Assembly: GCA_017555585.1 (NCBI GenBank)
Contig: JAFZGA010000005.1
Span: 102,656 to 166,655 of the forward strand
Length of the DNA: 64,000 bases
Direction of reading: 5' to 3'
Source of the DNA: Bacteroidaceae bacterium
Lineage (GTDB): Bacteria > Bacteroidota > Bacteroidia > Bacteroidales > Bacteroidaceae
Positions within the stretch are counted from its first letter, which is position 1; each line of letters begins with the position of its first letter. The notes under the pieces are model-generated. The model was not told where the DNA came from and did not search any database. It worked only from the letters and a program-made list of their open reading frames with translations. The translations under genes and the position numbers were made by a program. Of the stretch, positions 1,034-17,443 are shown one piece after another.

Positions 1034-2032
1034 ATGGAAAAGTATATAGCATCAGTTGCAAGATATGACAACGGTGATATGCTCTATCGCCGTTGTGGTG
1101 GCAGCGGAATACTGTTGCCAAAGGTTTCTCTTGGTTTTTGGCAGAACTTCGGTGCCGATGCATCATACGACAACTGCCGTTCGATAGCCCGTATGGCATT
1201 CGACAACGGTATAACACATTTTGATCTTGCCAACAACTACGGTCCACCTCCCGGCTTTGCCGAAGAGATGGTAGGACGTATGCTCAAAGAGGATTTCGCA
1301 TCACACCGCGACGAACTGCTCATTGCCACAAAAGCCGGCTACGATATGTGGGCAGGACCTTATGGCAGTTGGGGTTCCCGCAAACACCTTATGGCAAGTC
1401 TCAACCAGAGCCTGCGTCGTTTGGGGCTTGATTATGTCGATATATTCTACATTCATCGCTTCGACCCTGTTACACCGCTTGACGAAACCCTGCAGGCCCT
1501 TGTCGATATTGTACGTGCAGGCAAGGCTTTTTATATAGGAATATCCCGATGGCCACTCGAGGCATTGAAATATGCCGACACATTCCTGCGTTCGCAGGGT
1601 GTGCCTCCGCTTATATTCCAAGGCCGTCTGAATCTGCTTGACAGGGCAGTGCAGCAAGAGGGTATTCTCGATTATTGTAACGGTAATGGACTCGGATTCA
1701 TCTCTTTCTCGCCATTGGCGCAAGGTCTGCTTTCGGCACGTTATCTGAACGGAATTCCTGAAGGCTCGCGCATGTCGCGTGGCGGCTCGCTCAAAGCAGA
1801 GATACTCACACCCGAGCTGCTTGAATACCTCAACCAACTGAATAACATTGCCACAGAACGCGGAGAATCGCTTACCACAATGGCACTTTCCTGGATTCTC
1901 TCACAGCGCGGTGTAACATCCCTGATTGTCGGTGCCCGCACACCCGAGCAGTTTATGGAATCGCTCAAGTGCGTGGACTCTGCTGTATTGACAGCTGTTG
2001 ACCTTCCGTTATATCCTCACAAGGTATTCTGA
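1034..2032 (+). CDS. aldo/keto reductase (YghZ / Kv-beta-like)
   Basis: 332 aa with AKR-type motifs GITHFDLANNYG, LDYVDIFYIHRFD and ISFSPLAQGLL. Confidence 0.85.
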   Translation: MEKYIASVARYDNGDMLYRRCGGSGILLPKVSLGFWQNFGADASYDNCRSIARMAFDNGITHFDLANNYGPPPGFAEEMVGRMLKEDFASHRDELLIATKAGYDMWAGPYGSWGSRKHLMASLNQSLRRLGLDYVDIFYIHRFDPVTPLDETLQALVDIVRAGKAFYIGISRWPLEALKYADTFLRSQGVPPLIFQGRLNLLDRAVQQEGILDYCNGNGLGFISFSPLAQGLLSARYLNGIPEGSRMSRGGSLKAEILTPELLEYLNQLNNIATERGESLTTMALSWILSQRGVTSLIVGARTPEQFMESLKCVDSAVLTAVDLPLYPHKVF

Positions 2033-2090
2033 TTCAGTACAACAGCATTGTAAAAAACAGTCTTTGTCGTGTATGACTGCTTAATATGAC

Positions 2091-2116
2091 AAAATGCCGG
2101 CATTGGCCGGCATTTT
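2091..2116. terminator. bidirectional hairpin terminator between convergent genes
   Basis: aaaatgccggc-attg-gccggcatttt forms a perfect 11-bp stem with A/T runs on both sides. It lies between the AKR stop (+) and the S46 peptidase stop (-). Confidence 0.7.
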
Positions 2117-2160
2117 GATATGATGGGATTTTGAAAACCCGTGTTATATGAATCACCTGT

Positions 2161-4305
2161 TTATTTTACGATGTTCATCTCGTCGATGAGGCGTTTGCAG
2201 TTACCTAATTTCTCGATAACGAAAAGTACATAACGGATATCGACGTTGATGCAACGCTGGAGATTATCGTCGAAGTTGATGTCACCACTGAGCGATTCCC
2301 AGTTGCCGTCGAAAGCCAAACCGATGAGCTCGCCACGTGAGTTCATTACGCCACTACCGCTGTTACCGCCGGTGATGTCGTTTGTTGTAAGGAATGCAAC
2401 AGGCATCTCACCGTTAGGCAATGCATACTGGCCAAAGTCCTTTGCCTCATACAGCTCCTTCAGGCGTGCAGGAACGATGAACTCGCTGCTTTCGGGGTTC
2501 TCTTTCTCCATTACACCCTTCAATGTGGTGTAGTGGTTGAATGTAACACCATCCTTGGGGCTGTATGCCTTTACGTTACCGTAGGTCATACGCATTGTGA
2601 AGTTTGCATCGGGTGCCATAGGTGCGCCGTTTGCCTTCTCCATCAAGCCTTTGAGGTATGTCTTGTGCAATGGATTGATTCTCTTTGCGAACTCGTTGCT
2701 CTTTGCTGTAATCTCCATGTATGATTCGAACACTGCATGGCGTAGCTTGTATGCAGGGTCAGCCTCGTAAGCCTTCAAGGTAGGTTTCTTCATGAACTTG
2801 TCGAAGTTCTTCTTGTTTGCGAGTATTGACTTCTCGTATACCATGTCGAGGTACTTTCCGAGGTTGCCTTTATACTTTGCATATACTTCGTTGAGGTATG
2901 CAGGGCGCTCGTTCTCTTCGGTCAACTTAAAGTAGAGCGGTAGAACCTCTTTTGCAATGCGCAAGTCGATTTCATGGACATAGTCACGGTTGTGCAGCCA
3001 GTTGTATATGTTGTTCATCTGGTCCTTTATGAGCAATGGGCTTTCATTGAACATGCTCTTGCTGTTATCAGAGAGGTTGCGCTGTATGAACTCTACGTTG
3101 CTGATGAGCTCTGTGATTACAGTAGAGAGGTATACGGTGCGGTTCATATCCTTGACACATGCGTTGATGTCGTTCACGATATTCATGTACTCTTTGTTGC
3201 CGGTCTGCTTTGCCCATGTAAGGAACTCTGCCTCCTCTGCGAGTTTTGTTTCTACTACTTTGTTGTCGACAATAGCCTTGTTCATACCGATAGAGTTCTT
3301 CCAGTAGTTGCTTATGCGTGCCTGCTTGTTGGCGTATCTGATTGCGATATCCTCGCTCTTTGCCATCTCGTCACGGATAATGTTCAAAGTTACGTCACGC
3401 ATTGCTATGCGTGGCTCATTGCCTTGGTACATTCTCTGCTCAACCTCTTCGCCTGTGAGGTAGCGTGATGTGCTGCCTGGGAATCCCATGATCATCGCGA
3501 AGTCGCCGTACTCGAATCCTTTCAACGATACGCTGAGGTGCTTTGGTGTGCTGAGCGGAGTGTTGTCCTTGCTGTATGCAGCCGGGTTACCGTCCTTGTC
3601 ACCGTAGATACGGAATACCGAGAAGTCGCCAGTGTGACGTGGCCACATCCAGTTGTCGGTCTCGCCACCGAACTTGCCGATAGAGTTGGGAGGTGTTGCT
3701 ACAAGGCGTACATCGGTATATTTCTTGTAGTATACGAGATAGTATTTGTTGCCCTCGAAATATGGAAGCAGCTGTGGGTACATATGCTCCTTGCCGGCGA
3801 GGTTGTCTGCGTCGAACAACTCTTTTGCGATGGTGGCAAGTGCATTGCGCTGGAATGAAGCCTCTTCGGTCAATCGGCCGTCAGCAACGCGCTTGTTGAT
3901 CTCGTCGGTAACGTCCTTGATCTCCTCTACGAATGTAAATGCAATGCCTTCGCATGGCAACTCCTCTTCGTAGCTCTGGCTCCAGAAACCGTTGTGAAGG
4001 TAGTTGTGCTCTACTGTACTCAACTGCTGGATAAAGCTGAAACCGCAGTGGTGGTTGGTGATTACAAGGCCGTTAGGTGAAATTACCTCACCTGTACAGC
4101 CACCGCCAAAGATACCGATAGCATCCTTGAGTGATGGTGTGCCCGGGTTGTAGATCTCGTCAACTGATATTTCAAGGCCCTGCTTGCGCATCTGGTCCTC
4201 GAGATTTTGCTGGCGCATGAGCTGTAGAAGCCACATGCCTTCGTCGGCCATGGCCTGCGGTGTGATGAGCACTGCCAAGAGCAGCGTTGATAGGATTTTT
4301 TTCAT
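2161..4305 (-). CDS. S46 family dipeptidyl-peptidase (DPP7-like)
   Basis: 714 aa with a signal peptide followed by the DEGMWLL start typical of S46 enzymes. The catalytic Ser context is TGGNSGSGV, and the putative S1 position reads AFDGNWE. Confidence 0.9.
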   Translation of the reverse strand: MKKILSTLLLAVLITPQAMADEGMWLLQLMRQQNLEDQMRKQGLEISVDEIYNPGTPSLKDAIGIFGGGCTGEVISPNGLVITNHHCGFSFIQQLSTVEHNYLHNGFWSQSYEEELPCEGIAFTFVEEIKDVTDEINKRVADGRLTEEASFQRNALATIAKELFDADNLAGKEHMYPQLLPYFEGNKYYLVYYKKYTDVRLVATPPNSIGKFGGETDNWMWPRHTGDFSVFRIYGDKDGNPAAYSKDNTPLSTPKHLSVSLKGFEYGDFAMIMGFPGSTSRYLTGEEVEQRMYQGNEPRIAMRDVTLNIIRDEMAKSEDIAIRYANKQARISNYWKNSIGMNKAIVDNKVVETKLAEEAEFLTWAKQTGNKEYMNIVNDINACVKDMNRTVYLSTVITELISNVEFIQRNLSDNSKSMFNESPLLIKDQMNNIYNWLHNRDYVHEIDLRIAKEVLPLYFKLTEENERPAYLNEVYAKYKGNLGKYLDMVYEKSILANKKNFDKFMKKPTLKAYEADPAYKLRHAVFESYMEITAKSNEFAKRINPLHKTYLKGLMEKANGAPMAPDANFTMRMTYGNVKAYSPKDGVTFNHYTTLKGVMEKENPESSEFIVPARLKELYEAKDFGQYALPNGEMPVAFLTTNDITGGNSGSGVMNSRGELIGLAFDGNWESLSGDINFDDNLQRCINVDIRYVLFVIEKLGNCKRLIDEMNIVK

Positions 4306-4324
4306 AGTGTATTATTCTAATTGG

Positions 4325-5062
4325 TTATTGTTTGTTGTAAAGTGTGTTGGCAATGGCTGTTTCAGCCTCGGCCATCATGCGGTCAACATTCTCGGCATCG
4401 CGTCCATTGCATTCAATCGGTGCATGGAATGTAAGTGTTACAGGTGACCAGTGCAAGCATTTGCAACCTTTTGGCAGAATGTTGTATGAACCGTCAATGG
4501 TAATTGGAATGATGGGTACTTGGGTCATGTTGGCAATTACAAAAGCACCCTTCTTGAATGGATTCATCTTGCCGTTTCTGCAACGTGTGCCTTCCGGGAA
4601 TATACCCATTGAGGCTCCGCTCTTCAATATATTGATTGATTTACGCAACAGGTCCTTCTGAGGGGTAGAACGGTTCACAAAAATGTGCCCGGTCTGCGCG
4701 CATGCCCTGCCAAGCAAAGGCATCTTGCGGAGTGTGTCCTTCATGATCCATTTGAATCGCTTGCAGACATATCCGTACATTACAAAAATATCGAACATAC
4801 CCTGATGGTTTGCCACAAAGATATAGTTCTGGTCCTTCTTTACATATTTGTCGCGGTCGACAACCTTTACCGGGATAAGGAATATCCAGCAAGTGAGTTT
4901 GCACCATATCACAGCTGGTGTGTGGTCGGCATTCTTTATCTTGAAACGGTAGCCGAACAGGCTGATGATTATGGCAGTGATTGTAACAACGATCAATGCT
5001 GCCCACCAGGCAAAAAGAACCTGGTACAGAATGTAGAGCGGGTGTAGAATTTTACGTAGCAT
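4325..5062 (-). CDS. plsC: 1-acyl-sn-glycerol-3-phosphate acyltransferase
   Basis: 245 aa with an N-terminal TM segment, the HX4D motif NHQGMFD and the FPEGTR motif. Confidence 0.85.
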   Translation of the reverse strand: MLRKILHPLYILYQVLFAWWAALIVVTITAIIISLFGYRFKIKNADHTPAVIWCKLTCWIFLIPVKVVDRDKYVKKDQNYIFVANHQGMFDIFVMYGYVCKRFKWIMKDTLRKMPLLGRACAQTGHIFVNRSTPQKDLLRKSINILKSGASMGIFPEGTRCRNGKMNPFKKGAFVIANMTQVPIIPITIDGSYNILPKGCKCLHWSPVTLTFHAPIECNGRDAENVDRMMAEAETAIANTLYNKQ

Positions 5063-5122
5063 AATTGTATGTTATTATGTTATGGAATTACAACGGGTGT
5101 AATATCTTTTCGCAGTTTACGG

Positions 5123-5130
5123 CAAAGATA
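5123..5130 (-). promoter_or_regulatory. Bacteroidetes-type -7 box (TATCTTTG) for plsC
   Basis: The minus strand reads TATCTTTG, matching the TAnnTTTG consensus. It lies about 60 nt upstream of the plsC ATG at 5062. Confidence 0.5.
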
Positions 5131-5175
5131 CCCTAAAATTTCTTTATTTGAAACGTTTTTTATGATAATGTGGTG

Positions 5176-5985
5176 TCATTCAACGTTCTTTGACAGGAAT
5201 TTGTACAGTTCGGCAGCAGTCGTTCCGCTTCTTTGGACGTAATCTTCAAGTTGCTCTTCCGTTATTTTGCCCACAGCAAAGTAGCATGCCCTGGGATGAG
5301 AAATCATCATTCCGCATACCGATGCGTGCGGTGTCATTGCTCCGTTGGGTGTAATGGTTATTCCTATTCTTTCTGTTTGTAACAGTTTGTTGAGAACGAA
5401 GATGATGCTCTGGTCGGGCAGTGAAGGGTAGCCCACAGCCGGGCGTATGCCCTGGTTTTTCTCAAGGAGCAGTTCCTCCATCGTAAGCTCTTCGTCTTGT
5501 GAATATCCCCACAGCTCTTCGCTGGTGCGTATCTGCCAGTGCAGCAGTGTGGCTGTTGCCTCGGCAAGGCGGTCGGCAAGAGTCTGCGCAAGCAGGTAGC
5601 GGTATGGATCATCTTTATATTCCGCTCCGAAATCGTTGTCTGTCGTTGTGGCGAAAATGCCTAACTTGTCGCCGTATGGCGAAACGAAATCGCTGAGGCA
5701 AAGATTAGGTTTTCCGTCAATGGCGTGTTGCTGTCTTAGGCAAGGGATTGTCACACCTTCGGCTATTATGTTGTCTCCGTCACCATTGGCATCGCAGAGC
5801 ACAAAGATGGCATGCGTCCGGCATTTGTCGCCCATGTCGTGCAATAGTCTCTTTGCATCATTTATCACCTCTTCGGCCGTCTCTCCTGTTGCTTTGCCCG
5901 AAAGCCCCCATGCATGAAGCAGGTAGCTCCAATCAATGTATGGAGCTACCTCGCTTATGCTATAGTGGAAAATGTGTCTTTTCAT
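5176..5985 (-). CDS. stand-alone methionine synthase (MetH) reactivation / AdoMet-binding domain protein
   Basis: The tracked ORF 5176..6117 is trimmed to Met45 (MKRHIFHYSISEVAPYIDWSYLLHAWGLSGK...). It is collinear with the C-terminal activation domain of E. coli MetH (PYIDW, RQQ, LADRLAEA, QGIRPAxGYP, SVxG...SHP...YFAV). Its ATG overlaps the upstream gene's stop by 4 nt (ATGA). Confidence 0.85.
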   Translation of the reverse strand: MKRHIFHYSISEVAPYIDWSYLLHAWGLSGKATGETAEEVINDAKRLLHDMGDKCRTHAIFVLCDANGDGDNIIAEGVTIPCLRQQHAIDGKPNLCLSDFVSPYGDKLGIFATTTDNDFGAEYKDDPYRYLLAQTLADRLAEATATLLHWQIRTSEELWGYSQDEELTMEELLLEKNQGIRPAVGYPSLPDQSIIFVLNKLLQTERIGITITPNGAMTPHASVCGMMISHPRACYFAVGKITEEQLEDYVQRSGTTAAELYKFLSKNVE

Positions 5986-7328
5986 CGGTTGAATCTGAGG
6001 GCCTTTCCGCGTATATCTTCGTTTATTCTTCCGCTCTTGTACACGCACTCGCCGTTTACCCAAGTCTGTTCTACTTTCCATTTGAATGTTGTGCCTTCGA
6101 ACGGACTCCAGCCACAAAGGCTTATTATATCGTCCTTTGTTACAGTGTGCGGGCTGTTCGGGTTCAGCAATACAAAATCGGCATGGTTGCCTTTTGTTAT
6201 ATAACCTCGTTTGTCAATGTCGAATATCCTTGCAGGCGCGTGGCACATCTTCTCGACAAGCTCTTCTATCGTGAACTGTTTCTCATCGACAAGGTTCAGC
6301 ATCGACAGCAACGAGAACTGTATGCTCGGCATGCCCGAAGCAGCTTTCAGTGCGCCACCCTTCTTGTCATCGGGGTGGTGTGGGGCGTGGTCTGTTCCAA
6401 TGAGGTCTATCTTGCCTTCTGCAACAGCCTTGCGCAGGGCTTCGCGGTCATCGGCACTCTTTATAGCCGGGTTGCACTTTATTTTTGTGCCCAATGTGGC
6501 ATAGTCGGCATCGCAGAATGTAAGGTGTGCCGGTGTCACTTCGGCAGTGATTTTCTTGTTTTCGGGTTTGCCGGCAGTGAGAAGCTCAAGCTCCTTGGCG
6601 GTGCTGATGTGCATTACATGAAGGCGTGTGCCGAACTTTTCGGCAAGTTCCACTGCGCTTGCGGTGCTGCGGTAGCATGCCTCCTCGCTGCGTATCACAG
6701 GGTGGAACTTAACGTCGGGGTCATCACCCTCCTGCTCCTTTATCGCTTTTGTGTTCGCTGCGATGATTGAACTCTCCTCGCAATGTACGGCTACTGGCAT
6801 ATTCAATCTTTCAGCCTCCTTGAAAATCTTTTCAAGCTCGTTCTTCTTGTCAACGAGCATGTTGCCTGTGCTCGAACCCATGAAAAGCTTTATACCACAA
6901 ACTTTTTTCGTATTGAGTTTTGCGAACTCATCGCAGTTGCTGTTTGTCGCACCAAAGTAGAAAGAGTAGTTTATTACGCTCTCCTTTTCGGCGATGGCAT
7001 ATTTCTCTTTCAGAGCCTCGATGGTAGTTGTCTGTGGAACAGTGTTGGGCATCTCCATGAACGATGTCACACCACCTGCTGCCGCTGCGCGGCTCTCTGT
7101 GGCTATTGTTGCCTTGTGGGTGAGTCCCGGCTCGCGGAAGTGTACATGGTCGTCTATTACACCCGGTATAAGATACATGCCGGTGGCTTCTATTATTTCA
7201 TCGCACTGGGCGCGTGGCAGTTCGTTCTCGCGCAGAATCTCTACTATCTTGCCGTTGTTCACTACTATTGAGCCACGGAACTGCTCACCGTTGTTCACTA
7301 TCGTGGGGTTGCTTATAATTGTACGCAT
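5982..7328 (-). CDS. pyrC: dihydroorotase-type cyclic amidohydrolase
   Basis: 448 aa with the metal-binding motif DDHVHFREPG, MHIST and GTDHAPH, typical of class I DHOase/allantoinase-fold enzymes. Confidence 0.75.
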   Translation of the reverse strand: MRTIISNPTIVNNGEQFRGSIVVNNGKIVEILRENELPRAQCDEIIEATGMYLIPGVIDDHVHFREPGLTHKATIATESRAAAAGGVTSFMEMPNTVPQTTTIEALKEKYAIAEKESVINYSFYFGATNSNCDEFAKLNTKKVCGIKLFMGSSTGNMLVDKKNELEKIFKEAERLNMPVAVHCEESSIIAANTKAIKEQEGDDPDVKFHPVIRSEEACYRSTASAVELAEKFGTRLHVMHISTAKELELLTAGKPENKKITAEVTPAHLTFCDADYATLGTKIKCNPAIKSADDREALRKAVAEGKIDLIGTDHAPHHPDDKKGGALKAASGMPSIQFSLLSMLNLVDEKQFTIEELVEKMCHAPARIFDIDKRGYITKGNHADFVLLNPNSPHTVTKDDIISLCGWSPFEGTTFKWKVEQTWVNGECVYKSGRINEDIRGKALRFNR

Positions 7329-12067: not shown

Positions 12068-12919
12068 TTACTTTCTTATCTTTACGTTCTTGAATATCAG
12101 GTTTGCTTGGTGACTGTAGGACCATACGGTGACATTGGATAGCTCTGTGGCCAATTCATCTACGTTCTTTACCACAATGCTTCCTTTTGCGAATACATTT
12201 TCGGGGATCGTGGTGTATACATTGTTAGGACTGTCTGATGTACCTAAGGTCAATGAAGCTTTGTTATATCCAAAGTCGTATTTGTTTCCCTGATCGTCAT
12301 AGATATATGAACGGCCACCATCTGCGCCATACAGCCTAAGGTTAACATTCTTATTTGTTACATTGGCAACTCTGTATGTAACGGTCACGGTATTGCTTGA
12401 ATTACATTTGCAATTCAGTAATGTGAATTCCAAGTCATCGCTACAAGAAACAACCGTTCCTGTGGTCTGTGGCTCCTCAATCTCGTGGTATGAACGTCCC
12501 TGTATTGCTACATTCTTGAATATCAGGTTTGCTTGGTGACTGTAGGACCATACGGTAATATTTGCAAATCTTGATGCATAGTCATCAACGTTGTAAATCT
12601 TGACCGTGCCCTTTACTTTTACTCCTACAGGGATTGTGGTGGATACATTGTTAGGACTGTCTGATGTACCTAAGGTCAATGAAGCCTTGTTATATCCAAA
12701 GTCGTATTTGTTTCCCTGATCGTCATATATATATGAACGGTCATCATCTGCGCCATAGAGTCTGAGTGCGATGGGCGTGTTTCCTGTATTTTCTACCGTA
12801 TAGCTCAATGTAGCAGTCGTTCCCGAAATTGTACAGCTTGTCAATAAAAATTTCAAATTGTCATTGCATGTGATAATCTCTTCTTTGCCACTAACAGATG
12901 TACTCTCTACGTTCATGCT
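12068..12919 (-). repeat. in-frame tandem duplication, period 426 nt (2 x 142 codons)
   Basis: Identical stretches sit at an offset of exactly 426 nt. For example ttcttgaatatcaggtttgcttggtgactgtaggaccatacggt occurs at 12087 and 12513. acattgttaggactgtctgatgtacctaaggtcaatgaagc... at 12219 and 12645 is near-identical over roughly 120 nt. More diverged segments lie between these stretches. Confidence 0.9.
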
Positions 12920-14434
12920 TACAGGTAATTCGTAATCTCCCATTTCGGTGCGGATAATAATTGTAAAACTGTACTCTCCAGGGGAAAGACCGTCTCGAAT
13001 AGCTTCGACAGTAAATGTCTCGTAAGTGCTGTTGTCTCCAGGGATGTATTCCTGGAGTACACCTTCGGTTGGACTGATGTGTGCCCAATCTGCATCACCT
13101 TTTATGTGTAGCTTGTATGTGGTTGGACCGTTATATGAGTATACGGAGAAACTCTTGGAAGTCTCTGTTCCCATATCCAGTTTCATTGGTGAAAGCACCA
13201 GATAACGATTATCAGCTTTCTCTGCATTTATTGTGACAATGAACGACTCACCATCGGACTCTACCGTAATGGTTGTACTATGCTTGCCGAATTCAAGCAT
13301 GTTGCGGTCGACTTCCACTTTTACTGTACTGCTTTTGCCCATTGCTGTAGTGCCTGAAATTGGGTTTATCTTAATCCAATCAGTTTCTACATCTTTAATC
13401 TCCCAATGCGAGCTTCCTGCATTGCCGACGTTCTTTATATTGAAAGTGAGAACTTTGGTGTCAGCTCCAAAATCAAGAATATCTTTATCCAATTCTATCT
13501 TATGGAATTTTTCTTCTATCTCTGCTGTAATTCTCAATGAAAGCGATTCACCGTCGGCATTTACAAAGATTGTTGTGCTGTGTTCTCCTACTTCTAGTTT
13601 ACTGCGATCTATATTTACTTTCACGGCACTGCTCTTGTCCATAGCTGTTGTGCCAGAGATAGGGCTGGCAGTCAGCCAATCTACGTCAATGCCGTTTATT
13701 TCCCAATCGACATTTCCTGCGTTTCCGATATTTTTTATATCAAAAGCGAGTGTGTTGTATTCTGTTCCAAAATTCAAAGAATTGGTACTCAATGATATTT
13801 TTGAATTTTTGTTTTCGGTTTCGGCTGTAATCTTGAGTGGTAGCGATTCGTTATCTGCATTTATGATGATTGTTGCTTCTTTATATTCTGTTACGCGGTT
13901 ACGTTTCAATGTAACGACAACTGCATTGCTTTTTCCGGCTTCTATGGTTCCAGAGGTTGGACTGATGCTGAACCAATCAATATCCTTTAACTCGCTGATG
14001 TTCCAGTTGATTCTTTTGTTTCCATTATTCTGTATGTTGAATGAGAGAGAAGAATTGTGGCTGCCGAAGTTTAATGAGTTTATACTTAAAGCCAATACAC
14101 CCTCTTTTACAACCGGTGTCAATTGAATGTCCCCTGATACGTCGCTTCCGGTAATGACAGTGACGGTTTTATTGTTTGATATATAACCATCTTTCTTTGC
14201 TTGAATTTCATATTGTTTGGGCTCAAGATTAAGGAATTCAAAAGTGCCATTACTGCCGGTTGTCTTTGTGTTTCCTGTAGGAGTTATAGTTACAGAAACA
14301 CCTTGCAGATACTCACCGGTTTGGGCGTCAGTGACTTTTCCCATGATGTTTCCTGTGAAAACTTCTATATCTTCAGCACAAGTGCCAAACAAAAGTATGG
14401 AAAATAATATACAAAGATATTTTATACTTTTCAT
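12068..14434 (-). CDS. surface protein: CarboxypepD_reg-like domain + 4 BACON/Ig-like repeats + 2 tandem C-terminal beta-sandwich-like domains
   Basis: The ORF is trimmed to Met53 (MKSIKYLCILFSILLFGTC signal). GKVTDAQTGEYLQGVSVTI...GTFEFLNLEPKQYEI matches the carboxypeptidase-regulatory-like fold. Four ~95-aa repeats follow the pattern L..NSLNFG...W..ISP.SGT....S..V.V...R. The last 2 x 142 aa are near-duplicates. Confidence 0.7.
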   Translation of the reverse strand: MKSIKYLCILFSILLFGTCAEDIEVFTGNIMGKVTDAQTGEYLQGVSVTITPTGNTKTTGSNGTFEFLNLEPKQYEIQAKKDGYISNNKTVTVITGSDVSGDIQLTPVVKEGVLALSINSLNFGSHNSSLSFNIQNNGNKRINWNISELKDIDWFSISPTSGTIEAGKSNAVVVTLKRNRVTEYKEATIIINADNESLPLKITAETENKNSKISLSTNSLNFGTEYNTLAFDIKNIGNAGNVDWEINGIDVDWLTASPISGTTAMDKSSAVKVNIDRSKLEVGEHSTTIFVNADGESLSLRITAEIEEKFHKIELDKDILDFGADTKVLTFNIKNVGNAGSSHWEIKDVETDWIKINPISGTTAMGKSSTVKVEVDRNMLEFGKHSTTITVESDGESFIVTINAEKADNRYLVLSPMKLDMGTETSKSFSVYSYNGPTTYKLHIKGDADWAHISPTEGVLQEYIPGDNSTYETFTVEAIRDGLSPGEYSFTIIIRTEMGDYELPVSMNVESTSVSGKEEIITCNDNLKFLLTSCTISGTTATLSYTVENTGNTPIALRLYGADDDRSYIYDDQGNKYDFGYNKASLTLGTSDSPNNVSTTIPVGVKVKGTVKIYNVDDYASRFANITVWSYSHQANLIFKNVAIQGRSYHEIEEPQTTGTVVSCSDDLEFTLLNCKCNSSNTVTVTYRVANVTNKNVNLRLYGADGGRSYIYDDQGNKYDFGYNKASLTLGTSDSPNNVYTTIPENVFAKGSIVVKNVDELATELSNVTVWSYSHQANLIFKNVKIRK

Positions 14435-14474
14435 GTTTATCTGTTTTTTTACTTGTTGTTGATTGTTACGTTTG

Positions 14475-15353
14475 TTAGAAGCCGTAGCTGAATGACAAAC
14501 CGTAGAAATCTTTTGCGGCTGTTGCTCCAAAGTGCATCTTGCGTGGTTTGACAACAACATGTCTTGCTCCTGGAGCCACAACTGCGTCAATCAGGTTGTA
14601 GATATATATAGCGGCCGCGGCACCGATACAACAGTTTCGTGCAATTTTAAAGTTGCTGGCTTTTGAGTGGTATTGTTTTGCGTATTTGGGTTGGCTGCGC
14701 ATTTTTGATATGTATGCTGCACGCATGTTTTCTGTGTATATAATGCCACCAATTGTAGCCGCTTCTGTTGCAATGATTGTGATACCTTTACCTATGCTTC
14801 CCTTATACATTTGTCCCCAGCCAGGAACTAAGGCACGAGCCGAAAAACCATATTTTTCTGTTACTCTGAATTCGTCAAACATAGCATGTTTGCCAACGTT
14901 AGAAACGACAAATAATGTATACAACTTAAATATGCGAATACCATTCTCTTCGTATATCTCATAATACTCATCTACACGTTCACAGTAAATGGAAACTTCT
15001 TTTTCTTCAGACTTTACATTGTATACGTAAGTCTCATTTTCAGAGTAATTCAAGTTATCCTTTTGTTGTTTTGTCTCAGACTGATTACTTAAATCTTCTG
15101 AAACCTGGATATTGAATTCTTTTTGAATATAACGTGTCAACTCTGTTCGTGCCAACAAACGGGATGATGAGAGAGTTTGACCATTATCAACTTCTACAAC
15201 CTTAAAAGAATAGCTTCCGTTCAAAGCCTTGGGAGTATTATTAAGCCACGCCGGCTTTTTCTTGTCTGACCTTTCAACGGTATCGGCATAAATAGGTGTT
15301 GCTACTATAGAAATAAGTAGCAACACGTATATTGTAAACAAATATCTATGCAT
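14475..15353 (-). CDS. membrane protein with a signal peptide, LPP20-like N-terminal part and DUF5683-like C-terminus
   Basis: 292 aa. The C-terminal pattern VPGWGQMYKG + TM + ...AAAIYIYNLIDAVV resembles the DUF5683 signature (PGxGQxY ... Y..N.iDA.V) as I remember it. Confidence 0.5.
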   Translation of the reverse strand: MHRYLFTIYVLLLISIVATPIYADTVERSDKKKPAWLNNTPKALNGSYSFKVVEVDNGQTLSSSRLLARTELTRYIQKEFNIQVSEDLSNQSETKQQKDNLNYSENETYVYNVKSEEKEVSIYCERVDEYYEIYEENGIRIFKLYTLFVVSNVGKHAMFDEFRVTEKYGFSARALVPGWGQMYKGSIGKGITIIATEAATIGGIIYTENMRAAYISKMRSQPKYAKQYHSKASNFKIARNCCIGAAAAIYIYNLIDAVVAPGARHVVVKPRKMHFGATAAKDFYGLSFSYGF

Positions 15354-15361
15354 AGCAATCC

Positions 15362-16069
15362 TTATTGCATTGTTGCACCTTTATAACCACTAAGGCTCTT
15401 TTCCATTTGTTCTTTGAACTTTTGTTCATCGAATTTTACACGAGCCTTTTGTTCAGATGTCAACTTTTCACTATAAACTTTTGCTACCTGAGCAGCCATT
15501 TCAGCTACACTCGTCTGATACTCAACACAAACAATGATTTTCCATTGATTATTAGGTGTTTTATAACGTGACATCTTAACAATAGCAGCCCCTTTAATCA
15601 ACTCCTTTGCTATACCATACTCGCGATCATCGGTATTCGATGTTTGGTCTGTTACAGAAGCACCTTGCTTATCATCTGCCGAAAACAGTTCTGTTCCACC
15701 GCTATAGTCTACTGTTGCGGTTTCAATGCATGTCTGTAAAGCTCTTGCCAAATTTGCACGGGCATTCAACTGCGCCAAGTTTGTTGCTGTAGATTCTTTA
15801 AAGTGTACACCGGTACCGTAAGCTCTTTTTGCAGGTTCTTCCATAGCATATTCAATACAAGGATCTAAAGCAACAGCAATATCTTGCTGACCTTGATTAG
15901 CTACAGCATTATTCTGTTGATTCTGCTGCTGTTGTTGCATCATCTGCATCATCTGCATCATCATTTCATTCTGAGAGTTCTTTGAACTCCCACATGATAC
16001 CATAAAAGAGACCAATAATCCTAATAATGAGCCGAGTACGGCATTTTTTAGATAGCGAAAGTTTTTCAT
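15362..16069 (-). CDS. lipoprotein (LPP20-like) with an M/Q-rich low-complexity linker
   Basis: 235 aa with the lipobox LVSFMVSCGSS, then NEMMMQMMQMMQQQQQNQQNN, then an alpha/beta domain loosely resembling the LPP20 family. Confidence 0.45.
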   Translation of the reverse strand: MKNFRYLKNAVLGSLLGLLVSFMVSCGSSKNSQNEMMMQMMQMMQQQQQNQQNNAVANQGQQDIAVALDPCIEYAMEEPAKRAYGTGVHFKESTATNLAQLNARANLARALQTCIETATVDYSGGTELFSADDKQGASVTDQTSNTDDREYGIAKELIKGAAIVKMSRYKTPNNQWKIIVCVEYQTSVAEMAAQVAKVYSEKLTSEQKARVKFDEQKFKEQMEKSLSGYKGATMQ

Positions 16070-16130
16070 AGTAATAAAAATTTTATGAATGTATATATCG
16101 CCTATAGTCCCCCGGATTCGGCTGTAACCT

Positions 16131-16422
16131 ATATAAAATAAAGACGTGGGAGCCTGTACTTTTGCTCATCCCACATTCAGGCCTTCGCATTGCCCCCTTC
16201 CAGGATAAGCAATGCAGCTAGCCCACGTCAGACGAATATGCAAATAACCGCGCGATATACCTATATAACGTATACGCGCGACATTTGGATAAACATCGCC
16301 CATGGACGCAAACATTGCCGTATCTTCTGGAAGTATCAAAGTTGCGAAGTTTGAATGTTGAAGATTAACGTCAAGTAAACGTCTTATATGTATGCCCACC
16401 CAACCTTTATGGGCTAGCTGAG
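16131..16422 (-). ncRNA. candidate structured RNA: riboswitch-like leader of the 16069 operon, or a stand-alone sRNA (class unknown)
   Basis: It starts just downstream of an exact -7 box. An 11-bp long-range helix pairs 16420..16410 with 16225..16215. There are hairpins at 16280..16249 and 16215..16187, and a terminator hairpin (16174..16146) followed by CUUUAUUUUAUAU. The region is visibly more GC-rich than neighbouring intergenic DNA. Confidence 0.4.
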
Positions 16423-16427
16423 CATCG

Positions 16428-16435
16428 CAAATATA
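16428..16435 (-). promoter_or_regulatory. -7 box (TATATTTG) driving the structured RNA / lipoprotein operon
   Basis: The minus strand reads agTATATTTGcgatgctcagctagccc, an exact TAnnTTTG match. It ends about 7 nt before the 5' arm of the long-range helix. Confidence 0.5.
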
Positions 16436-16543
16436 CTAAAAAATATTAAATGTAAAAATAAATAATGTCAAAAAACGGCTTGTTGCGATGTGTAAATTTA
16501 AGAATTTATATATATTCGCGGTGTAAAACAAAAATACATTCAT

Positions 16544-17443
16544 ATGAGAAAAATAAGAGCTGCCATAGTTGGTTATGGTAATATTGGAAAATATACACTT
16601 CAGGCGTTGAATGCTGCGCCTGACTTTGAGGTTGCAGGTGTTGTTCGTCGTGCGGGTGCAGAAAACCTTCCACAGGAACTTGAGGGCTACGATGTAGTGA
16701 AGGATATCCGCGAATTGGGTGATGTGGATGTTGCTATTCTTGCTACTCCTACACGTAGCGTGGAAAAGTATGCAAAGGATATTCTTGCGTTGGGAATCAA
16801 TACTGTTGACAGCTTTGATATTCACTCCAAGATTCTCGACTTGCGCCGTTCGCTGGGCGAGAGTGCCGAATCAGGAAATGCCGTTTCCATCATCTCTGCA
16901 GGTTGGGATCCGGGAAGTGACTCTGTGGTGCGTACACTGCTTGAGGCTATTGCTCCAAAGGGTATCACATATACCAACTTCGGTCCGGGAATGAGTATGG
17001 GACATACTGTTGCAGTCAAGGCTGTAGAGGGTGTCAAAGCTGCTCTTTCAATGACAATCCCGGTGGGTACAGGAATACACCGCCGTATGGTTTATATCGA
17101 GCTTGAGGATAGCTATGATTTCAATCAGGTGGCTGCAACAATCAAGTCCGACCCATATTTTGTGAACGATGAGACTCATGTAATCAAGGTGCCATGCGTT
17201 GATGACTTGCTCGACATGGGACATGGTGTGAACCTCACTCGCAAAGGTGTGTCGGGAACAACGCAGAACCAATTGTTCGAGTTCAACATGAGAATAAACA
17301 ATCCGGCTCTTACTGCACAGGTTCTTGTTTGCTGTGCGCGTGCTACCATGCGTCAGCAACCGGGTTGTTATACAATGATAGAAATTCCTCTTATCGACCT
17401 GTTGAGTGGCGACAGGGAACAGCATATTGCCCATCTGGTATAA
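16544..17443 (+). CDS. ddh: meso-diaminopimelate D-dehydrogenase
   Basis: 299 aa with the N-terminal Rossmann motif IVGYGNIGKY. Its length and overall pattern are as in Corynebacterium/Bacteroidetes Ddh. Confidence 0.8.
   Translation: MRKIRAAIVGYGNIGKYTLQALNAAPDFEVAGVVRRAGAENLPQELEGYDVVKDIRELGDVDVAILATPTRSVEKYAKDILALGINTVDSFDIHSKILDLRRSLGESAESGNAVSIISAGWDPGSDSVVRTLLEAIAPKGITYTNFGPGMSMGHTVAVKAVEGVKAALSMTIPVGTGIHRRMVYIELEDSYDFNQVAATIKSDPYFVNDETHVIKVPCVDDLLDMGHGVNLTRKGVSGTTQNQLFEFNMRINNPALTAQVLVCCARATMRQQPGCYTMIEIPLIDLLSGDREQHIAHLV

Follow-up and report, generated by a model that had tools for sequence, protein, structure and literature searches.

The window analysed here, a stretch of 64,000 nt from a Bacteroidaceae bacterium (GenBank assembly GCA_017555585.1, contig JAFZGA010000005.1), contains an intergenic spacer of 474 nt between two divergent units: the gene for meso-diaminopimelate dehydrogenase (ddh; 16544-17443, plus strand) and, on the minus strand, an operon that starts with the gene for a 235-amino-acid (aa) lipoprotein (15362..16069). 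The question raised by this locus is what the minus strand of the spacer encodes. A first-pass annotation had proposed a structured, riboswitch-like leader with three mutually exclusive helices, which attenuates transcription of the surface-protein operon. The spacer does hold a structured leader RNA on the minus strand, preceded by a promoter and ending in a stem followed by a U-tract, but the leader is not specific to this operon. It is a member of a real, conserved and uncatalogued family of structured RNAs of ~295-350 nt, of which ~30 distinct copies were collected.

The nhmmer profile match of the family spans window positions 16439-16132, and this match together with the family alignment A2 (28 sequences, aligned with MAFFT) delimits an RNA body of ~295 nt on the minus strand (16133..16427), from just past the promoter box to the end of the U-tract. 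The -7 consensus of the Bacteroidetes is TAnnTTTG. The box TATATTTG, present on the minus strand at 16428..16435 as had been noted, fits this consensus and lies upstream of the predicted transcript, in line with a Bacteroidetes promoter of the sigma-A type; 24 of the 28 aligned copies have a box in these very columns of the alignment (13-20). Nearly all copies terminate in a stem and a U-tract, and a U-tract follows the 3' arm of that stem in most homologues; in the window the U-rich tract is UUUAUUUUAU (16133..16142, minus strand). The pairwise identity between the window RNA and the other copies is 52-60%.

Homologues of the lipoprotein were gathered by a metagenome scan, a protein search and contig look-ups. 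The metagenome scan yielded only five loci, but the first conserved block was seen there. In most homologues the element is complete, -7 box and U-tract included, and lies directly upstream of the lipoprotein gene, even at 29-36% protein identity; exceptions are locus L110, which has a simple promoter, L104, which has a spacer of 146 nt, and L117-L119, which have the inverton described below. The RNA-led lipoprotein operons occupy four chromosomal neighbourhoods (next to ddh, LptD, GrpE-DnaJ or an OEP/ABC operon). Neither the RNA nor the operon is present in 80 ddh loci (79-94% amino-acid identity) from uncultured Bacteroidaceae, Paraprevotella, Bacteroides and Phocaeicola. These share only ddh and the ~80 nt upstream of it, and the ddh junction is therefore lineage-specific. 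A shortened RNA of ~190 nt adjoins ddh in L092-L094 (L092:2762-2939); the central part of the rod described below is missing from it, but promoter, 5' hairpin, H3 and 3' end are retained. Scanning IMG/VR for patterns taken from the conserved blocks added ~20 further copies. BLAST located others in cultured Phocaeicola, on plasmids of 92-95 kb, where they fill a spacer that carries no annotation; examples are NZ_CP072250.1 of P. dorei CL06T03C03 (RNA at 53.9-54.2 kb) and NZ_CP096966.1 of P. vulgatus. A phage collection returned one 52-nt end match only. The comparison of homologues that had been recommended thus finds the helices conserved, with covariation, at unrelated loci.

No catalogued RNA class accounts for the family. 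Rfam 15 gave no match at the gathering score anywhere in the 64-kb window, and at E <= 10 the region 15950-16650 held only two chance matches (E of at least 1), both outside the RNA body; for six other members no Rfam match overlapped the RNA at E <= 1. The Rfam scan called for by the first-pass annotation thus returned none of the riboswitches, nor T-box, 6S, transfer-messenger RNA (tmRNA), RNase P, signal recognition particle RNA, GOLLD, ROOL, HEARO or the Bacteroid* motifs. Literature searches found no description of the family. One candidate, HMP2_1881 (Fremin and Bhatt 2021, PMC8040213), came from a search of 200 of the 408 supplementary files of that study. It is a Bacteroidetes rod RNA of ~105 nt near radical-SAM mobile-pair genes, reported as expressed, and it is a different RNA. 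HMP2_1881 is promoter-proximal and begins right past a TAnnTTTG box, as does the window RNA family.

The individual sequence features on which the proposal rested were all recovered. The helix P1 is an exact 11-bp inverted repeat of CAGCTAGCCCA (16420-16410) and TGGGCTAGCTG (16225-16215); the estimated chance of 0.01-0.02 for such a repeat agrees with dinucleotide-preserving shuffles of 16131-16435 (305 nt), 17 of 2000 of which contain a perfect inverted repeat of at least 11 bp. A CGCGCG...CGCGCG hairpin (16280-16249) forms 6+5 bp with one bulged U and appears in minimum free energy (MFE) folds. The GCAUUGC/GCAAUGC pair is present at 16215-16187, GUGGGA/UCCCAC at 16174-16146 precedes CUUUAUUUUAU (16143-16133), GACGUGGG (16229-16222) is the complement of CCCACGUC (16150-16143), and the ATG is at 16069. 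A simple terminator scanner called no terminator at the window RNA, because the loop has 16 nt and the scanner accepts at most 8.

The transcript strand folds with an MFE of -113.5 kcal/mol (z = -7.1), which none of 100 shuffles equals. In the comparison of strands, the sense fold reaches -94.5 kcal/mol and the antisense fold -74.2 kcal/mol, a difference of ~20 kcal/mol in favour of sense. The MFE structure consists of a 5' hairpin (16425-16392) and one long rod (16385-16141) with the CGCGCG hairpin as its tip; it contains neither P1, nor the GCAUUGC hairpin, nor GACGUGGG:CCCACGUC, nor GUGGGA:UCCCAC.

This rod, rather than the three proposed helices, which it excludes, is also the fold best supported across the family. 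Unguided RNAalifold on A2 returned hairpin H3 and the rod (columns 135-203 with 314-380). In the window, the 5' strand of the rod (helices R1-R8; 16304..16361, minus strand) pairs with 16224-16170, and the nucleotides of the 3' strand (helices R8-R1; 16170..16224, minus strand) are the same as those that form the helices of the alternative fold discussed below. H3 (AAGACGU-UUACUUG-ACGUU, with the conserved loop UUUACUU; 16367..16385, minus strand, from RNAalifold) is paired in 94.7% of the cells of columns 107-113/121-128. The rod was scored as 46 pairs, H3 included, over 1266 cells, against 500 shuffles and slid controls. Cells were paired in 95.3%, versus 84.0% in the shuffles and 36-44% in the slid controls; two-sided changes occurred in 24 of the 46 pairs (13.8 in shuffles) and 136 cells (35 in shuffles), and the covariation score was 0.388 (0.189 in shuffles). 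No shuffle out of the 500 attained any of these measures. As many as five pair types occur at a position in helices R2, R3 and R5, and the rod is recovered by single-sequence MFE in 19 of 21 members. G-U pairs make up ~12% of the rod cells, which, together with the better folding of the sense strand, indicates that the constraint acts on the transcript. The apical hairpin of the rod (CGCGCGUAUAC...GUAUAUCGCGCG; 16249..16280, minus strand, from the MFE folds) is variable: the homologues retain a hairpin that differs in sequence and length. An extension of the rod, R0 (GAAAAGCG with CGCUUUUU), was discarded, as it is broken in L194 and L212, which keep H3.

The nucleotides of the rod can be used in a second way. 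In the split fold they form L1 (the 5' half on itself), L3a/L3b, a pseudoknot, and the stems S1 and TERM. The segments GGGCAAU and AGCC, unpaired in the rod, are nearly invariant and are paired in the split fold. A set of local helices found by eye (L1, L2, L3 and the pseudoknot) had been considered as the main fold; it was dropped from that role, given the much stronger covariation of the rod, and kept as the alternative state. The split-fold cells are paired in 92.5%, versus 39-48% in slid controls, and 11 pairs show two-sided change, a number attained by 7 of 500 shuffles. The split fold is the MFE in two of the 21 members; when constrained, it lies 0.4-3 kcal/mol above the MFE in L084, L095 and L102, and the gap is at least 10 kcal/mol in 14 of the 21.

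Within the split fold, L3b is the local hairpin UGCAUUGC...GCAAUGCG (16186..16216, minus strand), i.e. the GCAUUGC/GCAAUGC hairpin of the first-pass annotation. Its columns (325-330/349-354) are 98.2% paired, and its nucleotides also belong to rod helices R4 and R7. The L3 loop, GCUUAUCCUG (strand PK5; 16201..16210, minus strand), forms the pseudoknot with 16173-16164, i.e. with strand PK3, UGGGAUGAGC (16164..16173, minus strand), which extends into the 5' arm of the local terminator. This pairing of the loop with GGGACGAGC is found in 95.1% (columns 331-338/377-384), and it is fully compensated in L192 (GCUCUUUUU:AAAAAGAGC).

Two stems, S1 and TERM, share one 3' arm at the U-tract. The 3' arm, segment e (UCCCACGUC; 16143..16151, minus strand), stands directly before the U-tract and can pair either with segment c, the 5' arm of S1 (GACGUGGG; 16222..16229, minus strand, opposite 16150-16143), or with segment d, the GUGGGA arm of the local terminator TERM (16169..16174, minus strand). 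S1 (GACGUGGG:CCCACGUC) is paired in 99.5% of the family cells, and in three lineages it is kept by compensation, GUGAGG in c facing CUCAC in e. TERM (GUGGGA:UCCCAC) is paired in 82.8% of cells with 10 two-sided changes, reached by none of 500 shuffles, and is compensated in L185 (GUGAAGC:GCUUCAC, d:e); in L201 both c and d track a change in e. In L192 and L194 TERM is impossible and S1 is retained. The pairing of GACGUGGG with CCCACGUC had been taken for an anti-terminator. It adjoins the U-tract, is the most conserved partner of e and persists where TERM cannot form, and it therefore looks like a terminator stem instead. S1 is a G+C-rich stem directly before the U-tract, as in intrinsic terminators, and termination itself is predicted.

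The 5' domain provides the third competitor. It folds (MFE) into the hairpin Pa/P2 (AUGCUCA.CUAGCC...GGUUGG.UGGGCAU; 16392..16425, minus strand), which sequesters the 5' arm of P1, and all 21 members examined have an equivalent hairpin of stem, internal loop and stem, built from sequences that are unrelated. Covariation thus marks both the rod and Pa/P2 as conserved structured domains, as in riboswitches. The 5' arm of P1 (16410..16420, minus strand) is the exact complement of the 3' arm (16215..16225, minus strand), which shares nucleotides with the 5' arm of S1 and with rod helix R8; P1 is incompatible with Pa/P2, S1 and R8. The target of P1 is the stretch around GCGUGGG(G)CUUNNGC, in a sliding register that always covers the GGG of segment c. 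Because the register slides between members, P1 was scored by per-sequence duplexes; in our reading of the duplex list it forms a contiguous helix of 8-16 bp in 18 of 22 members, and scoring at fixed columns gives 13-23 of 26 paired. The arms are compensated across members, the pairing being re-created with different sequences: CAGCUAGCCCA:UGGGCUAGCUG in the window, GCCGAAGUC:GGCUUCGGC in L194, GGCAGAAGUCCAC:GUGGGCUUCUGC in L198, GCAGAGUC:GGCUCUGC in L201, CCGGAAGCCCC:GGGGCUUUCGG in L149, CCUUACGCCGAUA:UAUCGGCGUGAGG (13 bp) in L103, and a duplex of 16 bp in L185. P1, S1 and TERM, the three helices claimed to compete, are thus all conserved in the family, and since they share nucleotides the competition is real.

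The RNA stands at the head of operons that have little in common. Behind the copies we find, besides the lipoprotein operons, a type III methylase and restriction enzyme (L138), HKD and Snf2 helicases with DUF4391, a methylase and a restriction subunit (L158, L185), an EF-Tu-like GTPase with an Hsp70-like protein and HerA (L198), a GajB-like UvrD helicase with a radical-SAM protein (L147, L149), a large unannotated protein with an Hsp70-like protein (L148), HxsD with two radical-SAM proteins (L172, L176), a signal-peptide protein of 1737 aa (L192) and a run of lipoproteins (L201); fimbria-like proteins also occur. The co-oriented gene starts 51-91 nt past the e arm in 16 of 17 measured copies, and 14 nt past it in L198. 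No TAnnTTTG box is present in these spacers, and the few TTTG runs are in the U-tract or beside the ATG; in the window, the e arm and the ATG are separated by 73 nt without TTTG. A hairpin with a GGGG-containing loop is usual in the spacer, in lipoprotein, restriction-modification, Hxs and plasmid contexts alike; in the window it follows the terminator at 16099..16122 (minus strand), ~30-50 nt before the ATG, with GGGGG at 16113-16109. This hairpin might pair with C-rich arms or bind a protein. It is also seen at L212 ~7265-7290 and L138 ~535-560. Upstream neighbours are often tyrosine integrases, as typed by Pfam; at three loci the upstream ORFs (open reading frames), which were not scanned, are terminase-like in appearance only. 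The L138 locus further contains a tmRNA gene (L138:11098-11310, cut by the locus end) ~10.5 kb downstream of its RNA-led type III restriction-modification operon, so that this island adjoins another classic integration hotspot.

Taken together, a bistable transcription-attenuating leader is the best reading of the element and, on balance, a probable one, if narrowly so. Window positions 16435-16070 (minus strand) would then hold the promoter of the lipoprotein/DUF5683/BACON operon together with its 5' leader, and the RNAs of the family would act in cis, in Bacteroidales of gut and rumen and in the mobile elements of these bacteria. In the rod, the 5' half (16361-16304) would pair with the 3' half (16224-16170). 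Segment c would be locked in R8, at the far end of ~45 pairs, and segment d held weakly and partly in R1/R2, so that segment e and the U-tract would lose the partner of better terminator geometry. In the split fold each half would fold on itself, the 3' half as L3 with the pseudoknot from its loop to d, and the L3 domain would be closed by c:e (S1) or, instead, by d:e (TERM). Either stem against the U-tract may cause termination ahead of the operon. A duplex on the 3' arm beside a U-tract promotes intrinsic termination by hairpin invasion, and oligonucleotides annealed in trans can do likewise. Any duplex on e at the U-tract should hence terminate, and both c:e and d:e are read as terminator-competent. 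The 5' end would alternate between the local hairpin Pa/P2 and P1; since P1 pairs segment c, it would compete with S1 and with nucleation of the rod. Read-through would require an e segment without a partner, in the rod or when P1 holds c while the pseudoknot holds d. The balance of folds would thus set read-through into the operon, candidate shifters being a ligand, a protein, a small RNA or the speed of transcription.

Calculated energies for the window are -113.9 kcal/mol for the rod (the MFE), -110.5 for rod plus TERM, -102.9 with S1 enforced and -95.7 with P1 enforced. Nucleotides are shared between the rod and L1/L3/pseudoknot/S1, between P1 and S1, and between S1 and TERM, and TERM tolerates most of the rod. 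In co-transcriptional MFEs a local hairpin of the 5' half forms first and the rod follows once the 3' half emerges. Either kinetics or a bound factor probably decides the outcome of folding.

Several points weigh against the attenuation model. Transcription, the start site, the 3' end, termination and the identity of the ON fold are all inferred. The P1 folds are far less stable than the rod, and the P1 duplexes, with their sliding register, have a modest z (mean -1.3 versus mononucleotide shuffles). TERM and most of the rod are compatible in the window at a cost of only 3.4 kcal/mol, so that thermodynamically the rod is no clean anti-terminator. The columns of the split fold are mostly invariant, its pairing of 92.5% comparing with 91.1% in shuffles, and selection on it is for that reason less certain than selection on the rod. 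At L187 and L160 the RNA is followed by convergent genes, with no co-oriented downstream gene and no U-tract. Finally, the downstream genes are varied, unrelated operons rather than genes tied to one ligand, and the lack of a common metabolite argues against a classical small-molecule riboswitch. The term "riboswitch" is only an analogy.

One group of copies shows that the RNA gene also serves as a target for integration. Locus L149 carries an intact RNA followed by the helicase/radical-SAM operon; its positions 54-1703 match L179 (the left junction) and 1686-6205 match L147 (the right junction). On L149 the two matches overlap by exactly 18 bp, GGCGTTGCTCGTTTCGAC, which is also the family consensus and is located in the L3 loop and the R6-R7 strand. 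The window equivalent of this crossover core is CTGCATTGCTTATCCTGG (16200..16217, minus strand), which agrees with the consensus at 11 of 18 positions. The same element end abuts two further RNA copies, L160 and L159, where an ORF of 738 aa adjoins the junctions; from its N-terminal similarity to Pfam-typed integrases, this ORF, itself unscanned, is a putative integrase. Empty, left and right forms sharing one core, with an integrase-like ORF, mark an attB within the RNA gene, and element insertion occurred at three or more different RNA copies. The aligned stretches that show the insertion are L179:437-2087, L147:568-5087 and L160:5285-5928 (RNA on the plus strand), and the L147-type junction flank is rich in GTTAC/GTAAC repeats. 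Since integration splits the RNA and the element does not repair it, we infer that the operon must lose its promoter.

A DNA switch is found at loci related to the window. In L117-L119 a homologous lipoprotein/DUF5683/BACON operon lies behind a gene for a 402-aa tyrosine recombinase and an inverton, and the RNA is absent. In L117 (2467-2950) a perfect 16-bp inverted repeat, TCTCTTATTGAGAGAT, flanks 452 bp, and the -7 box TAACTTTG faces away from the operon, which is the OFF orientation. The window itself was considered as an inverton and rejected: its promoter is outside the repeats, no TAnnTTTG occurs between 16226 and 16409 on either strand, no recombinase is found among the annotated neighbours of the locus, and all homologous copies are collinear.

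The observations above also bear on readings without any functional RNA structure. Chance inverted repeats or a decayed coding remnant, in line with which a GTG-initiated ORF of 77 aa (16166-16399) overlaps the region, have a negligible probability and are already refuted: the fold z-score and the covariation of the family at unrelated loci exclude chance, and a remnant is ruled out as the members have stops in all frames, open stretches that shift between members, no conserved frame, and no Pfam match for the 77-aa ORF. A purely DNA-level element, i.e. an integrase attachment site or an invertible switch, would explain the 18-bp crossover core, the 184-bp spacing of the perfect repeat P1 and the classic inverton with adjacent recombinase in front of the homologous operon in L117-L119. 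It would not explain compensatory changes over ~45 pairs, far past any att core, or the G-U content and the 20 kcal/mol in favour of the sense strand; moreover, all full-length copies (~30 distinct) are collinear with the profile, without an inverted middle, and the promoter lies outside the repeat pair, with no box between the repeats. Covariation and strand asymmetry largely refute this reading, which we consider very unlikely.

Two rivals accept the RNA and place its function elsewhere. It is rather unlikely, though to be taken seriously, that the element is an independent small RNA, a rod of ~300 nt transcribed from its own promoter to its own terminator, which acts in trans by binding a protein or by base pairing; with the same modest probability the downstream genes would then be mere neighbours, cargo drawn by the attachment site. 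The promoter and the stem with U-tract do delimit a discrete transcript, for which the rod is the ground state when full-length and terminated (19 of 21 members), the element crosses over in the 18-bp core, tyrosine integrases are frequent neighbours, and L187 holds a full RNA without a co-oriented gene behind it. However, a co-oriented gene follows at a near-constant 50-90 nt in ~22 of 24 evaluable contexts, the spacer has no promoter box but a conserved hairpin, and integration splits the RNA without rebuilding it, which sets this element apart from those that insert into essential RNA genes. Conserved helices that exclude one another around the U-tract would also have no evident purpose in a purely trans-acting RNA. 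The two views are compatible, as a terminated leader can act in trans too. Distinctly less probable is a processive antitermination element of the type of HK022 put or the Bacillus eps-associated RNA (EAR), which would modify RNA polymerase to pass its own terminator and later intrinsic and Rho-dependent ones. Such a role would suit an RNA that always leads long accessory operons on mobile DNA (restriction-modification, Snf2/HKD, HerA, Hxs, fimbria-like and surface-protein operons), keeps its sequence core irrespective of this cargo and is directly followed by a terminator. Yet neither put nor EAR is similar to the family, Rfam returned no match, the element is 4-5 times the size of put RNA, no NusG-paralogue gene occurs among the annotated neighbours, and the extensive conserved alternative pairing suits a switch better than a constitutive modifier of the polymerase.

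In the window, the operon behind the leader continues with genes for a DUF5683-like membrane protein (gene 2; 14475-15353, minus strand) and a CarboxypepD_reg/BACON/Ig-like protein (gene 3; 12068-14590, minus strand). The latter was listed as an ORF of 840 aa with a TTG start and an overlap of 116 nt with the preceding gene; its true start is probably the internal signal peptide MKSIKYLCILF. The lipoprotein contains a Gln/Met-rich low-complexity stretch, MMQMMQMMQQQQQNQQNN, that is kept among its homologues. Comparison of window 15362-16435 with L086:2628-3702 shows 99% identity over the RNA and the signal-peptide region and only 75% amino-acid identity over the whole lipoprotein, which points to a conserved leader in front of a surface protein that is a mosaic or evolves fast. 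Another perfect inverted repeat of 11 bp, ATACATTCATA (16084-16094 and 16534-16544), has its copies immediately upstream of the start codons of both divergent genes, ddh and the lipoprotein gene; it may be due to chance or be the trace of an insertion that joined the two units.

For the attenuation model, a wider role can be sketched, tentatively and with less confidence than the model itself. Possibly the family is a new class of large regulatory RNA with two states, a transferable on/off leader placed before operons of anti-phage defence and surface variation. It would do with RNA what invertons do with DNA and would answer a cellular or infection signal; insertion into the 18-bp core would then reversibly silence host defence. 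To our knowledge, mainly DNA inversion has been described until now for such control in gut Bacteroidales. If true, costly defence systems and surface antigens would be under a shared RNA module of unusual size, with the refolding of the whole molecule deciding on termination. As the module travels on mobile DNA, leads varied defence systems and is an integrase target, it joins the subjects of RNA switches, regulation of phage defence and integration of mobile elements. The cultured Phocaeicola strains that carry the RNA offer a tractable experimental handle, and even as a mere stand-alone RNA it would be large, structured and widespread, and Rfam does not contain it.

Among known systems, the family resembles transcription-attenuating riboswitches and leader attenuators in being a cis leader with a covarying structure, helices that share nucleotides, and a stem and U-tract before the start codon. 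It differs from these in that it has no known aptamer or ligand and no common pathway among the downstream genes. The switching unit is the whole RNA of ~300 nt, in which ~45 pairs are re-partnered, rather than a short platform on an aptamer, and the terminator can be completed in two ways, since its 3' arm pairs with either of two segments. With 6S RNA and other rod-shaped bacterial RNAs the family shares a long imperfect rod as ground state and conserved internal loops; it is longer than 6S RNA, has no Rfam 6S match and no central bubble resembling an open promoter, and is located in a leader, with many copies per community on mobile DNA. HK022 put and the Bacillus EAR are also structured RNAs that head long acquired or surface-structure operons, with terminators after them and a link to phages or mobile elements; the likeness is positional only, the window family being much larger and without similarity in sequence or structure.

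As an attachment site, the RNA gene is comparable to tRNA and tmRNA genes, where a tyrosine integrase likewise uses a short core inside a structured-RNA gene and empty, left and right forms are found. The element here, however, brings no replacement of the 3' part, and its integration cuts the promoter and 5' part off from the 3' part and the operon. Finally, the Bacteroides invertons occupy the same position before homologous operons (L117-L119) and govern the same class of surface and defence genes. The window, in contrast, has no adjacent recombinase among its annotated neighbours, its repeats enclose no promoter, inverted copies are absent, and it is the pairing of the RNA that is constrained.

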